Below are positions 48,916 to 52,523 of a DNA stretch of 64,000 bases, piece after piece. The notes beneath the pieces are model-generated. The model worked only from the letters and a program-made list of their open reading frames with translations. It was not told the DNA's origin and made no database searches. The first letter of the stretch is position 1; each line of letters begins with the position of its first letter. The stretch lies in sequence record OR544955; one strand, written 5' to 3'. The DNA is from Escherichia phage vB_EcoP_EP32B. Position numbers and translations under genes: made by a program.

Positions 48916-49278
48916 ATGAAAGCATATCAAATTCTTGAAGGTGCACATAAAGGCACTATTTATTTTGAAGACGGTACTCAAGCCCGGATTATTGTCTCTA
49001 AGACTTTTAAAGAAGACGCTATTGTAGACCCGGAAATTTTCTACGGTTTGAATGCCCGTGAAATTGAAATTGAACATCAACCTAAAGTTAAAATTGAAGG
49101 TGGTCAACACCTGAACGTTAACGTTCTGCGTCGCGAAACTCTGGAAGATGCAGTTAAGCATCCAGAAAAATATCCGCAGCTGACCATCCGTGTATCCGGT
49201 TATGCAGTTCGCTTTAACTCTCTAACTCCGGAACAGCAGCGCGACGTTATCGCTCGTACCTTTACTGAGAGTCTATAA
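48916..49278 (+). CDS. Autonomous glycyl radical cofactor (GrcA/YfiD-like; T4 Y06I-type)
   Basis: 120 aa; C-terminal ...[29 protein letters not shown] glycyl radical motif nearly identical to recalled E. coli GrcA. Confidence 0.75.
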
Positions 49279-49502
49279 TGGCTAAATTGATTATAGAAGG
49301 GTCTGAAGATGTTTTAAAATGTTTTGCCGCCTGGTTTAGTTGCTCAGGCGAGCAATCATTCATTGAAGCATTTAGAATGGGTGATATTACTGGAAACTAT
49401 CCGACAACTGATATCACTGTACGTGGATATGGTATTAATGAGCCTATCCAATTGGTCGAATATGACCTTGCCACCGATGAGGAAATTCCTTATGTCGATT
49501 GA
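49278..49502 (+). CDS. Hypothetical protein
   Basis: 74 aa ORF. Confidence 0.45.
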
Positions 49503-49890
49503 AGACATCAAAGGCTATAAGCCGCATACCGACGATAAAATCGGTAAAGTGAACGCTATTAAAGATGCAGAAGTTCGAGGAAAAATACTAATGGCTCAAA
49601 TCCTATCAGGCTTTGGAACTCATTATGAAGCATCTAGACGCATAACTGAAAGCAATCCTTTTGGCCTTGTTCCGAAGCACAAGAAAATTCAAAGCCTTGA
49701 TGACTTTGAGAACCGCCTATGGGCCCTCTTTAATGAGTACAAGGCATATCTGAAAGAAGACGCTGACGATTGTCTTGAAGAAGATGAGATTGCGTATTAC
49801 GAACAACGCCTTGAACAGCTCAAGAACTTCCATCAGGTTCGTGACGAAGTATCTAAAGCAGTTAAAAAGTTAATTCCTTTCAAAGAGTAG
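49492..49890 (+). CDS. Hypothetical protein
   Basis: 132 aa from ATG 49492 overlapping upstream stop. Confidence 0.45.
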
Positions 49891-49940
49891 TTTACTTCTC
49901 CTCTAGTTGTGTTACTATAGACATGTCAACTAGAGGAGAA
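49890..49940 (+). promoter_or_regulatory. PeSL-like early promoter with 14 bp perfect stem
   Basis: GTTTAC 49890-49895; TGTTACTAT in loop; inverted repeat TTCTCCTCTAGTTG (49896-49909) / CAACTAGAGGAGAA (49927-49940), which includes the regB SD. Confidence 0.6.
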
Positions 49941-49946
49941 ATCAAA

Positions 49947-50405
49947 ATGACTATCAATTCAGACGTTTTTATCCGCCGTAATAAACTCCGTCGAATCTTT
50001 GAAACGGAGTTCCGCAAAATAAATGCCGGTATAAAAGATGCTGCAAAGTCTCTTGGACTACCAGGCTTTCATATCAAGTATTCTCAACATCTCTTAGATC
50101 GTGCCATCCAGAGAGAAATAGATGAGAATTACGTTTTTGAATTATTTCATAAAGTAAAAAATCATGTTAAAGAAGTTGCAGAATTTTTATCAATGCCGGC
50201 ACGTCCAGATGTTGATGAAGATTTTGTCGAAGGTGTCGAGTATCGTCCAGGCCGTTTAGAAATAACTGATGGAAATCTTTGGTTAGGACTTACAGTCTGT
50301 CGCGAAAATCCAGCATTCAAAATGAAGACTCTTCAATGCAGAATGGCTATTATTAACAGTAAACGACTACCAGGAAAAGCTTCTAAAGCAGTGATTAAAA
50401 TCTAG
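49947..50405 (+). CDS. regB: RegB endoribonuclease
   Basis: 152 aa; MTINSDVFIRRNKLRR...LQCRMAIINSKRLPGKASKAVIKI recalled as T4 RegB. Confidence 0.85.
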   Translation: MTINSDVFIRRNKLRRIFETEFRKINAGIKDAAKSLGLPGFHIKYSQHLLDRAIQREIDENYVFELFHKVKNHVKEVAEFLSMPARPDVDEDFVEGVEYRPGRLEITDGNLWLGLTVCRENPAFKMKTLQCRMAIINSKRLPGKASKAVIKI

Positions 50406-50413
50406 AGGTAAAC

Positions 50414-50956
50414 ATGAGAAAAGCACTACTCGCTGGTCTATTTGCTCTTTCATTATCAGCACATAGCTCCGAGCATACTTTTAGTAATGTCCAACTCGAT
50501 AACTTGAATTATGCTTATCAGTTTGGGGAACAGTTTTCTAAGGACGGAAAATTTAAAACGCATGAAAATATGCATAAGAAAGGACTTGGATACATAATGG
50601 CCGCAATACTATGGCAGGAATCATCTGCCGGTATTAATCTTAAAGATAAGAAAGGTCACCATGCGTATGGAATGTTCCAAAATTATCTACCAACAATGAG
50701 GGTAAGAATTAACCAGCTTGGTTATAATATGACTGATGCCCAAATTAAGAAAATGCTATCTAAGCGGTCTAATTCAGCCAGATGGGCTTATATCGAATTT
50801 TCTTATTGGTTAAATATACATAACGGGGATATAAGAAAAGCTATATCCTCATATAATGCGGGATGGAAGACAAGTGCTGGAAGTAAATATGCTTCTGAAG
50901 TCCTAGAAAAGGCTAATTACCTTAAATCAAATAAACTACTGGAAATAAAAGAATGA
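50414..50956 (+). CDS. Secreted lytic transglycosylase-like protein (SLT motifs)
   Basis: 180 aa; N-terminal signal peptide; QESSAG and SYNAG motifs. Confidence 0.55.
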   Translation: MRKALLAGLFALSLSAHSSEHTFSNVQLDNLNYAYQFGEQFSKDGKFKTHENMHKKGLGYIMAAILWQESSAGINLKDKKGHHAYGMFQNYLPTMRVRINQLGYNMTDAQIKKMLSKRSNSARWAYIEFSYWLNIHNGDIRKAISSYNAGWKTSAGSKYASEVLEKANYLKSNKLLEIKE

Positions 50957-51300
50957 CCAAAATGTTGGCTTTAATAGTTGGCTTGGTTTCATTTAGCGCT
51001 CTTGCTAATACTACATATACTGATGTAACGGAGTATACAAACAGAACGGCGTCTGATTATTGTGGTAAAAGTCAAGAGTGTAAAGTAGATTTTTCACAAA
51101 AATTGTTATATGCGTATAAAGACGGAGAAAAAGATGGGGCGTCTAGTAGGTTCAAGGCGTCTACCTTAATTAAAAGATACTATAAAAAATGGCAAATATT
51201 AGAATGCTCGGTGGCGGAACCTAAAGATAAGGCAGCATGCAATTCTATGGTGGACCGTCTAGTTGACTCTTATAATAGAGGACTTGCAGCAAGTGATTAA
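50953..51300 (+). CDS. Secreted hypothetical protein
   Basis: 115 aa; signal peptide MTKMLALIVGLVSFSALA. Confidence 0.5.
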   Translation: MTKMLALIVGLVSFSALANTTYTDVTEYTNRTASDYCGKSQECKVDFSQKLLYAYKDGEKDGASSRFKASTLIKRYYKKWQILECSVAEPKDKAACNSMVDRLVDSYNRGLAASD

Positions 51301-51760
51301 AAACTATATCAAGGGCGATATTGTCGCCCTGTTTTCTAAAGGTAATAATATTGCTCATGGGTGTAATTGTTTTCATACAATGGGCGCTGGTGTGGCAGGA
51401 CAATTAGCAAAGGCTTATCCAAAAATTTTAGAAGCCGATAAACTTCAAACCGAATTCGGAGACGAGTCTAAACTCGGGACTTATTCGGTTTATGAAAAAT
51501 ATTTTAAGACCCATAAAGCTTATTGCTTTAATCTTTATACACAGTTTGAGCCTGGACCTAATTTTGAGTACTATGCTTTAATGAATTGTATAATAGAATT
51601 AAATGAATTCGGAAAGAATAAGATAACAAAGCCTGTAATTTATATGCCAAGAATTGGTGCAGGTATCGGTGGCGGAAACTGGGATGTCATCGAAGAGATT
51701 TTAGACACATATTCCACTAAACTAGAAATTGTGATTGTTGATTGGGAACCATTATTATGA
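51263..51760 (+). CDS. Macro-domain protein (start uncertain, TTG/GTG)
   Basis: 165 aa; GDI...NIAHGCNCFHTMGAGVAGQL resembles macro domain ADP-ribose binding motifs. Confidence 0.5.
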   Translation: MTLIIEDLQQVIKNYIKGDIVALFSKGNNIAHGCNCFHTMGAGVAGQLAKAYPKILEADKLQTEFGDESKLGTYSVYEKYFKTHKAYCFNLYTQFEPGPNFEYYALMNCIIELNEFGKNKITKPVIYMPRIGAGIGGGNWDVIEEILDTYSTKLEIVIVDWEPLL

Positions 51761-51969
51761 ATATACATTATCCACATCCATATGACCCAAAGAATAAGGC
51801 AGTAATTATTCGTCAATGGGAACGCATTTGCCGTACTAAATGCCCAATTAATAGTCCACATGATGTAGATAAAGACTATATTGGAACATTCGTTGAATAT
51901 ACCTTTATTGATAAGAAAGGTCGTAAACAACATGTAGAAGAATATTGCTTAAAGGTTACATGGTTATGA
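51742..51969 (+). CDS. Hypothetical protein
   Basis: 75 aa ORF overlapping tk 5' end. Confidence 0.4.
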   Translation: MGTIIMNIHYPHPYDPKNKAVIIRQWERICRTKCPINSPHDVDKDYIGTFVEYTFIDKKGRKQHVEEYCLKVTWL

Positions 51970-52496
51970 GTCTTACTGCCGCCCATAACTATAAAGAACG
52001 TGGCATGGGTGTATTAGTTCTTAAACCGGCTATTGATACTCGCGATTCAAAAGGTGAAATAGTCTCTCGTATTGGTATTCGTCAGGACGCCAATATAATT
52101 ACAAAAGACATGGATATCTTTGAATTCTATAAATGGGCTGCAGCACAAAAGGATATTCATTGTGTATTTGTTGACGAAGCTCAGTTCTTAACTACTGAAA
52201 AGGTGTATCAACTTAGTCGTATTGTTGACGTATACAATGTGCCGGTAATGGCATATGGACTACGAACAGATTTTAAAGGTAATCTATTTGAAGGTTCTCA
52301 AGCATTAATGGCTATTGCCGATAAGCTTGTTGAACTTAAAGGTGTCTGTCATTGCGGTAAAAAGGCCACAATGGTAGCTAGAGTCACGGAAGACGGACTT
52401 CCAATTACAGATGGCAGTCAAATTGAAATTGGTGATACTGATAGATATGTGTCATTATGCCGGAAGCATTGGAATGATTTGACAGGGTTGTTATAA
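51960..52496 (+). CDS. tk: Thymidine kinase lacking the N-terminal P-loop (5'-truncated tk)
   Basis: Matches TK from ...AAHNYKERGM through C-terminal Zn motif CHCGKK...LCRKHW; no GxxxxGKS upstream in any frame; in-frame stop at 51924. Confidence 0.7.
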   Translation: MVMSLTAAHNYKERGMGVLVLKPAIDTRDSKGEIVSRIGIRQDANIITKDMDIFEFYKWAAAQKDIHCVFVDEAQFLTTEKVYQLSRIVDVYNVPVMAYGLRTDFKGNLFEGSQALMAIADKLVELKGVCHCGKKATMVARVTEDGLPITDGSQIEIGDTDRYVSLCRKHWNDLTGLL

Positions 52497-52498
52497 AT
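52491..52498 (+). promoter_or_regulatory. T4-type late promoter (TATAAATA) upstream of the rI region
   Basis: TATAAATA about 25 nt upstream of ATG 52524. Confidence 0.45.
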
Positions 52499-52523
52499 AC
52501 TAATATCTAACCAAGAGGTATAT

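Follow-up and report, generated by a model that had tools for sequence, protein, structure and literature searches.

A predicted exported pair, Vs.1 and Vs, next to a separate macrodomain gene downstream of regB in an RB69-like phage

Does the phage protein Vs, which databases annotate as a "valyl-tRNA synthetase modifier," belong in the cytoplasm, or is it sent to the cell envelope? The locus that raises this question lies in Escherichia phage vB_EcoP_EP32B (sequence record OR544955), of which we analyzed a stretch of 64,000 nucleotides, hereafter the window. As described in a sequence-only reading of this DNA, and as is clear from the ORF listing and the sequence itself, it contains three consecutive overlapping open reading frames (ORFs), all on the + strand and 3' of regB, the latter being recognized by the Pfam model REGB_T4. 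These ORFs are the orthologues of T4 vs.1 (50414..50956; 180 residues; 81% identity to T4 Vs.1; phrog_600, E = 1e-66), vs (50953..51300; 115 residues; 67% identity to T4 Vs; phrog_1256, E = 1e-35), and tk.4, also named adfM (51293..51760; 155 residues from a start at GTG 51293; 83% identity to T4 Tk.4). The order of genes in the T4 genome is regB, vs.1, vs, tk.4, tk.3, tk.2, tk.1, tk, and the block in the window follows it from regB through tk.4. This conserved order, together with global alignments of the products, identifies the block as the vs.1-vs-tk.4 block of a T-even phage, and the three ORFs cannot be due to chance since 657 phage records match them at the DNA level and their products show conservation among T4-like phages. 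The genes themselves, the SLT similarity of vs.1, and the macrodomain function of tk.4 were already known. What is new here is that the Vs family displays the hallmarks of export, which is at odds with its cytoplasmic functional label. Overall, we consider it fairly probable that vs.1 and vs form an exported envelope module, and that tk.4 is a separate, cytoplasmic counter-defense gene.

The extreme N terminus of Vs has the features of a signal peptide. The predicted signal peptide, MTKMLALIVGLVSFSALA (50953..51006, + strand), ends in an A-L-A cleavage motif and is followed by the predicted mature start NTT, which would leave a mature protein of 97 residues and 11.0 kDa. A comparable segment is found in all 57 distinct Vs orthologues, every one of which shows a basic residue, a hydrophobic stretch, and a small-x-small site, while the sequence itself drifts. 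In five Vs orthologues, a lipoprotein lipobox (V-A-L-S-G-C) replaces the AXA-type site, and two lipobox variants occur in Vs.1. Such a switch between two types of export signal is hard to explain unless Vs is exported. As for Vs.1, it starts with a predicted Sec signal peptide, MRKALLAGLFALSLSAHS (50414..50467, + strand), which has an A-H-S cleavage motif and precedes the predicted mature start SEH; this assignment comes from a reading of the sequence and from a heuristic. The latter is a rule of our own, distinct from SignalP, that looks for a basic n-region, a hydrophobic h-region, and either small residues at -3/-1 or a lipobox. It was passed by 66 of 71 Vs.1 and 49 of 57 Vs orthologues but by none of 157 cytoplasmic controls (RegB, Tk.4, Tk, and DUF7202 sequences), which bears out the signal peptides that the sequence-only reading had assigned to the first two proteins. 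The Vs sequences that failed included one frameshift fragment and six that missed narrowly, having a proline in their hydrophobic core. In the literature searched, we found no experimental report of the cleavage or periplasmic location of Vs or Vs.1, and no paper addressing the topology of Vs. When made in E. coli with an N-terminal His tag, T4 Vs was insoluble (2021 study, PMC8076793), which is expected of an exported disulfide-containing protein with a blocked signal peptide, yet is uninformative alone since it fits either view.

The predicted mature part of Vs also has features that argue for export. Four conserved cysteine codons lie in 51061..51240 (+ strand), specifying C37 (51061), C43 (51079), C85 (51205), and C96 (51238). 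All four residues are invariant in our alignment of close orthologues (set A1). In the diverse alignment (set A3), the third cysteine shifts, and the other three (C37, C43, and C96) remain invariant. An AlphaFold2 model of Vs, with a predicted local distance difference test (pLDDT) score of 84.6, consists of four helices and places the cysteines in pairs at the H1-H2 and H3-H4 hairpin turns, that is, in the geometry expected for disulfides that would staple the two hairpins. No match for Vs was found in the Pfam copy that we searched, and none in the PDB, whether with the single sequence or with a 27-member profile, both of which returned noise. An exhaustive HMMER search of 1.84 billion representatives and two word-indexed searches found no relatives beyond the PF26829 type; the named relatives of that type all come from phages, and no bacterial relative with a known role turned up. 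We also considered whether Vs might belong to LprI/DUF1311 or another lysozyme-inhibitor family and rejected this possibility, because the 27 members gave no recurrent Pfam match at E <= 10. The diverse Vs alignment is too variable for a pattern scan.

With what would an exported Vs act? Gene order across phages points to Vs.1. In a collection of 80 viral loci that encode a relative of Vs.1, we used jackhmmer to classify the ORFs. Vs is present in 64 of these loci, and its start lies between -8 and +7 nucleotides from the vs.1 stop in 56 of these 64 loci; in the remaining eight, it is found 0.47-1.2 kb downstream of that stop. In the window, the two genes overlap by four nucleotides (ATGA), the start codon of vs overlapping the stop codon of vs.1. 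The pair is kept in loci L050-L059, most of which have no regB, tk.4, or tk nearby, and whose Vs.1 proteins are 42-49% identical to that of the window, which is within the range of Acinetobacter-phage homologues. As for Vs without Vs.1, the contigs found with a Vs query were those already found with Vs.1. The vs-tk.4 junction is less stable: in 22 loci, the two genes are separated by 0.2-0.65 kb containing other ORFs. We conclude that vs.1-vs behaves as a two-gene module, of which tk.4 is an independent neighbor. The idea that all three genes form one system was rejected because of these 22 interrupted junctions and because tk.4 is missing where vs.1-vs persists.

Two further observations concern this gene arrangement. 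In four loci that have both regB and vs.1 (L060, L061, L062, and L074), and whose Vs.1 resembles that of Aeromonas phages, Vs went undetected. An unrelated exported protein or lipoprotein of 140-146 residues is encoded downstream (L060, 4109-4549; L061, 3856-4296; L062, 4375-4797; L074, 4031-4471), abutting tk.4 in L061, L062, and L074, and may be a non-orthologous replacement of Vs. In the window, a terminator-like hairpin, AGGGCGATATTGTCGCCCT followed by GTTTTCT, is found at 51312-51330 (+ strand), 12 nucleotides past the vs stop codon and inside the first tk.4 codons (K-G-D-I-V-A-L-F-S). It could partly uncouple transcription of vs.1-vs from that of tk.4, or simply be a consequence of the coding sequence.

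The identity of Vs.1 is better defined. We aligned it with 29 homologues, 39-83% identical to the window protein, which reveals three conserved motifs. Motif I, QESSAG (residues 68-73; 50615..50632, + strand), contains the putative catalytic Glu69, and both E69 and S71 are invariant. Motif II, YGMFQ (50666..50680, + strand), is the equivalent of GLMQ, with G86 and Q89 invariant. Motif III, SYNAG (residues 146-150; 50849..50863, + strand), is the equivalent of AYNxG, with Y147, N148, and G150 invariant and S146 and A149 conserved in at least 90%. The E-S, G..Q, and S-Y-N-A-G signatures are what we take to be motifs I-III of the family-1 lytic transglycosylases. Pfam SLT (PF01464) matches 27 of 29 diverse members of the Vs.1 family at E <= 0.01 (best 1.3e-7), and a precomputed PF01464 annotation is present on several relatives. 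The AlphaFold2 model of Vs.1 is confident (pLDDT 88.9), and the PDB entries that it matched in Foldseek include a GH23 chitinase, g-type lysozyme, MltD, Slt, Slt70, the phi6 P5 lysin, and T7 gp16; the list is composed almost entirely of muramidases and chitinases of the lysozyme superfamily before it turns to noise. The matches have probabilities of 0.85-1.0, TM-scores of about 0.4-0.5, and E-values of 0.01-0.7. Sequence-only and profile searches of the PDB yielded nothing significant, and the SLT link thus rests on Pfam, the motifs, and the fold, which together strengthen the earlier description of an SLT-like protein made from the QESSAG and SYNAG motifs. Similarity of vs.1 to SLT has also been reported previously (Nolan et al. 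2006, PMC1524935). Considering the predicted goose-lysozyme/SLT (GH23) fold and the invariant Glu69, Vs.1 is most likely a periplasmic lytic transglycosylase that would cleave the glycan strands of peptidoglycan.

Phenotypes in T4 set vs and vs.1 apart from their neighbors. The relevant values, given here as mean reads per site, come from a resampling comparison of LB with M9 in the HIDEN-SEQ preprint (Extended Data Table 6, sheet S8; 10.1101/2025.11.20.689424). Reads in vs dropped from 26.6 in LB to 5.0 in M9 (log2 fold change -2.19, adjusted p = 0), and those in vs.1 from 22.6 to 11.9 (-0.87, p = 0.0055, adjusted p = 0.155). The changes were not significant for tk.4 (290 and 275; -0.07), vs.3 (652 and 626; -0.06), or tk.3 (767 and 754; -0.03), and regB went from 179 to 403 (+1.17, p = 0.049, adjusted p = 0.80). 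Only vs and vs.1 are under-represented after liquid competition even in LB, approximately tenfold, and both are lower still in M9. Insertions are neutral in the genes that follow vs, so that the vs defect cannot be explained as a polar effect. According to the same preprint (10.1101/2025.11.20.689424), vs is the T4 gene most needed in minimal medium, and a clean vs deletion forms poor plaques on M9Glc, a defect that its authors interpret, via the valyl-tRNA synthetase (ValRS) label, as nutrient dependence, while noting that the role of ValRS modification is unknown. None of vs.1, vs, and tk.4 is mentioned in the main text of the CRISPRi-ART paper or in that of a second transposon-sequencing paper.

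The third gene, tk.4, encodes a macrodomain. The window protein matches Pfam Macro (PF01661) with 27.4 bits, above the gathering threshold of 22, over profile positions 2-117 of 118, and its sequence matches in the PDB are macrodomains, including Bacteroides BT1257 (1.6e-10), yeast Poa1p, Streptomyces SCO6735, human TARG1, and the DarG macrodomain, the best seven ranging from 1.6e-10 to 8e-5. Two glycine-rich loops are conserved in 50 Tk.4 homologues: RIGAGIGGGNW (51650..51682, + strand), the ADP-ribose phosphate-binding loop, in which I-G-x-G is invariant, and MGAGVAG (51380..51400, + strand), in which M-G-A-G is conserved. The PADLOC DarG model (2.5e-8; positions 4-145 of 329) and the NCBIfam DarG equivalog NF048014 (30.4 bits, short of the cutoff of 250; positions 4-146 of 338) cover Tk.4 over their macrodomain part only, making it a stand-alone DarG-like macrodomain. 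The sequence-only reading had recognized a macrodomain protein and suggested its relevance to ADP-ribosylation conflicts, and both proposals agree with what is known of the T4 orthologue: in a host expressing DarTG2, tk.4 alone among the T4 genes was specifically required (HIDEN-SEQ, November 2025 preprint, 10.1101/2025.11.20.689424), and a clean tk.4 knockout was sensitive to DarTG2, which led to the gene being renamed adfM. We aligned the 50 homologues (from loci L004-L078) with human TARG1, the sequence of which was verified against the PDB. The position of its catalytic Lys84 is a Gln in 49 of 50 homologues, and that of Asp125 is an Ala or Gly in all 50 (window segments 51533-51544 and 51650-51682). 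Lys84 of TARG1 presumably corresponds to K80 of DarG. The Tk.4/AdfM family may therefore use a catalytic mechanism other than that of TARG1 and DarG.

How might these proteins act during infection? Vs.1 would be made with a Sec-type signal peptide, exported to the periplasm, and would there cleave peptidoglycan glycan strands as a lytic transglycosylase. Vs would be translated from the start that overlaps the vs.1 stop and directed to export by a signal peptide of its own, and the mature protein of about 11 kDa would have four helices, stapled by two hairpin disulfides. In the periplasm, Vs could act as the partner of Vs.1, whether as cofactor, targeting factor, or regulator, and the pair might remodel the host wall during infection, aiding phage fitness most visibly in minimal medium. 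Tk.4 (AdfM) would be cytoplasmic and unrelated to the pair; in T4, it neutralizes the toxin of DarTG2, a DNA ADP-ribosyltransferase, presumably by taking ADP-ribose off thymidine in the DNA of the phage. This account draws on orthology, predicted folds, motifs, conserved export signals, synteny, and T4 phenotypes, each documented here or in the literature; enzymatic activity, localization, and any interaction between Vs and Vs.1 are what we infer. The most specific part of it is that Vs is mainly a periplasmic, disulfide-stapled partner of Vs.1, the two forming an unrecognized envelope module needed for full fitness in nutrient-poor conditions, and that the ValRS modification is encoded elsewhere, secondary, or a post-lysis artifact. 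We put this forward tentatively, with slightly more doubt than belief.

Several points weigh against this account. The export of Vs and Vs.1, contact between them, and lytic transglycosylase activity are all predictions. The Vs.1 protein of the window itself scores only 17.8 bits against Pfam SLT (PF01464), under the gathering threshold of 21.3, and its Foldseek matches have E-values of at best ~0.01 and TM-scores of ~0.5. The phenotype of vs.1 insertions might be simple polarity on vs. If Vs were cytoplasmic, its four cysteines could bind zinc, as Zn(Cys)4, instead of forming disulfides. On the side of Tk.4, a DarG/TARG1-type hydrolytic mechanism is not assured since the Lys84 and Asp125 of TARG1 are absent from the family. 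Finally, the ValRS-binding label that Vs has carried for 50 years, together with the valS(ts) genetics, implies an effect in the cytoplasm.

This last point is the core of the alternative that survives best, although we rate it as rather unlikely. Here, Vs is the cytoplasmic tau polypeptide that binds ValRS, and its N terminus either goes unused for export or sends out only part of the pool; the adjacency of vs.1 would then be a historical accident, and the minimal-medium defect a matter of translation physiology. The Vs label derives from the tau polypeptide, which binds the host valyl-tRNA synthetase, and vs mutations reportedly alter phage growth on valS(ts) hosts, according to genetics of the 1970s-80s attributed to McClain, Marchin, and Neidhardt. 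The literature searched, which does not include the original mapping papers, did not reveal on what grounds this ORF was assigned to the vs locus. The orthology to T4 vs is secure, and the 11.0 kDa predicted for mature Vs is near the ~10 kDa reported for tau, though this agreement would itself imply that a signal peptide is cleaved. The HIDEN-SEQ authors' reading of the M9Glc defect as nutrient dependence (10.1101/2025.11.20.689424) is also in line with a ValRS modifier. However, a signal-peptide-like N terminus in 57 of 57 Vs sequences, with a lipobox in five, is hard to explain without export, and the cysteines are conserved. Moreover, lineages that lack the other neighbors still have vs coupled, start to stop, to the gene of an exported enzyme, and vs.1 insertions cause a parallel fitness defect.

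If Vs is instead exported, as we prefer to think, it might restrain Vs.1 rather than assist it. Vs could be a Spackle-like periplasmic inhibitor of Vs.1, or of muramidases from superinfecting phages or the host, so that its loss would lead to uncontrolled degradation of the wall; we judge this unlikely. There is a precedent in T4, since Spackle, an early, exported helical bundle of 75 residues that contains a disulfide, binds the gp5 lysozyme and inhibits it (PMC7677548); Vs fits this general description. Insertions in vs are also depleted more strongly in M9 than those in vs.1 (5.0 and 11.9 reads per site), which an inhibitor would account for. The parallel phenotypes of vs and vs.1 are nonetheless slightly better explained by a cofactor or targeting role of Vs than by a purely inhibitory one.

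Less probable again is that Vs.1 is an auxiliary or ancestral secreted endolysin acting at lysis rather than an early wall remodeler. Its distribution would suit such a role, since Vs.1 relatives occur in 2,060 phage records, many of them outside the T4 group and including genomes of about 86-157 kb, well below the size of T4. However, in T4-type phages, vs.1 shares an early transcription unit with regB and lies far from the lysis genes (e, t, and those for the spanins), it is non-essential in T4, and e mutants fail to lyse despite having it (textbook T4 genetics). In two distant large phages (loci L070, 2776-4117, and L072, 2941-4239), a Vs.1-like SLT gene is followed by genes for a membrane protein and an overlapping lipoprotein; these look like an inner-/outer-membrane spanin pair, which suggests that members of the Vs.1 family can sit in lysis cassettes. 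Most improbable is that Tk.4 works on small molecules, as an ADP-ribose-1''-phosphate phosphatase or O-acetyl-ADP-ribose deacetylase rather than a DNA de-ADP-ribosylase, for while the "phosphatase" label of PHROG 335, the presence of Poa1p (a yeast ADP-ribose-1''-phosphate phosphatase) among its best PDB matches, and the missing TARG1 Lys/Asp dyad speak for it, the specific and unique requirement for T4 tk.4 under DarTG2, confirmed by clean knockout (10.1101/2025.11.20.689424), and DarG macrodomain profile matches running the full length of Tk.4 speak against it.

The wider locus places the window among T-even phages. In the megablast search of 49900-52500 that returned the 657 matching phage records, 155 were at 95-99% identity, and the best DNA identity, 98.8%, was to Escherichia phage HY126 and Shigella phage phi25-307. 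The window thus appears to come from an RB69-like T-even phage of the genus Mosigvirus, the genus of the two top matches examined. Upstream of vs.1, regB encodes the endoribonuclease RegB (49947..50405, + strand; Pfam REGB_T4, E = 7.2e-69). Its likely start is ATG 49947 rather than the mechanical ORF start at 49923: in a global alignment, the protein is 73% identical to T4 RegB, with the N terminus MTIN..., and regB is annotated as a 459-nucleotide gene in relatives. The tk.4 ORF, which opens mechanically at TTG 51263 (165 residues), likely starts in reality at GTG 51293, giving 155 residues. This start is favored by a GAGGA Shine-Dalgarno sequence nine nucleotides upstream, by the match to the T4 Tk.4 N terminus, and by the annotation in some close relatives, and with it vs and tk.4 overlap by eight nucleotides, GTGATTAA.

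Three neighboring features are worth recording. The Vs.6 orthologue (48916-49278, + strand) has a C-terminal glycyl-radical motif (Pfam Gly_radical, E = 2e-18), and its relatives are annotated as GrcA-like autonomous glycyl radical cofactors. Further downstream, a 132-residue chimeric ORF (49492-49890, + strand) has residues 1-29 from Vs.4/Acb2 fused in frame to a T4 Vs.3-like body, and of the Acb2/Tad1 hairpin domain, Pfam recognizes no more than positions 1-22; relatives have an intact 88-residue Vs.4, followed by a different ORF. Acb2 is a cyclic-nucleotide sponge that counters the cyclic-oligonucleotide-based antiphage signaling system (anti-CBASS), and EP32B seems to be without an intact copy. 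On the other side of the block, the window lacks 445 bp present in close relatives (L001) between the tk.3-like gene (DUF7202; 51757-51969, or from TTG 51742) and tk, with a junction near 51966-51972 (region 51757-52496). Two small ORFs are lost as a result, together with tk codons 1-19, which include the P-loop AAMNAGKS, and ATG 51966, at which the first of these ORFs starts, is now joined in frame to tk codon 20. Since the P-loop is lost, the encoded Tk is probably inactive. This junction was not shared by any of the 25 best phage records, none of which matches the stretch in one piece.

As catalogued genes, the three ORFs add nothing new; the value of the locus lies in the mismatch found for Vs, the product of one of the oldest named T4 "host-modifier" genes. 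If our account is true, the vs phenotype would have to be read in terms of the cell envelope rather than of translation, and hundreds of database entries would have to be re-annotated. The best-studied phage would then have a new periplasmic enzyme-partner pair, and a classic T4 gene would need another label.

How do the three proteins compare with known systems? The closest counterparts are those of T4 itself. T4 Vs.1 (NP_049725) occupies the same genomic slot as the window protein, which is 81% identical to it. T4 Vs (NP_049724; PHROG 1256; PF26829, precomputed) is 67% identical to its window counterpart, both being 115 residues long and encoded between vs.1 and tk.4, and it too carries a signal-peptide-like N terminus and four cysteines, so that nothing sets the window Vs apart. 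T4 Tk.4, which is AdfM, an anti-DarT factor with a macrodomain, is 83% identical to the window protein over 155 residues and likewise follows vs; the anti-DarTG2 activity is that of T4 AdfM, and for the Tk.4 of this RB69-type phage it would be expected from orthology. Compared with the DarG antitoxin, Tk.4 shares the macro fold, the ADP-ribose-binding glycine loops, and a profile match across the whole macrodomain, but is without the C-terminal DarT-binding domain (155 versus about 330-340 residues). With the SLT/GH23 family-1 enzymes E. coli Slt70 and P. aeruginosa Slt and MltD, Vs.1 has in common a predicted lysozyme-like fold, the E-S, G-x-x-Q, and (A/S)-Y-N-x-G motifs, and an invariant Glu. 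In contrast to these bacterial enzymes, it consists of one small domain of ~160 mature residues, is made with a signal peptide of its own, and lacks superhelical and LysM modules, and its sequence likeness to bacterial SLT domains is marginal. For Vs, the nearest analogy is T4 Spackle (gp61.3), which is also early, signal-peptide-bearing, small, all-helical, and disulfide-bonded, and acts on a phage muramidase. However, the two have no detectable relationship in sequence or fold, and while Spackle is not encoded beside its target, Vs, with its four helices and two putative disulfides, is encoded next to Vs.1.

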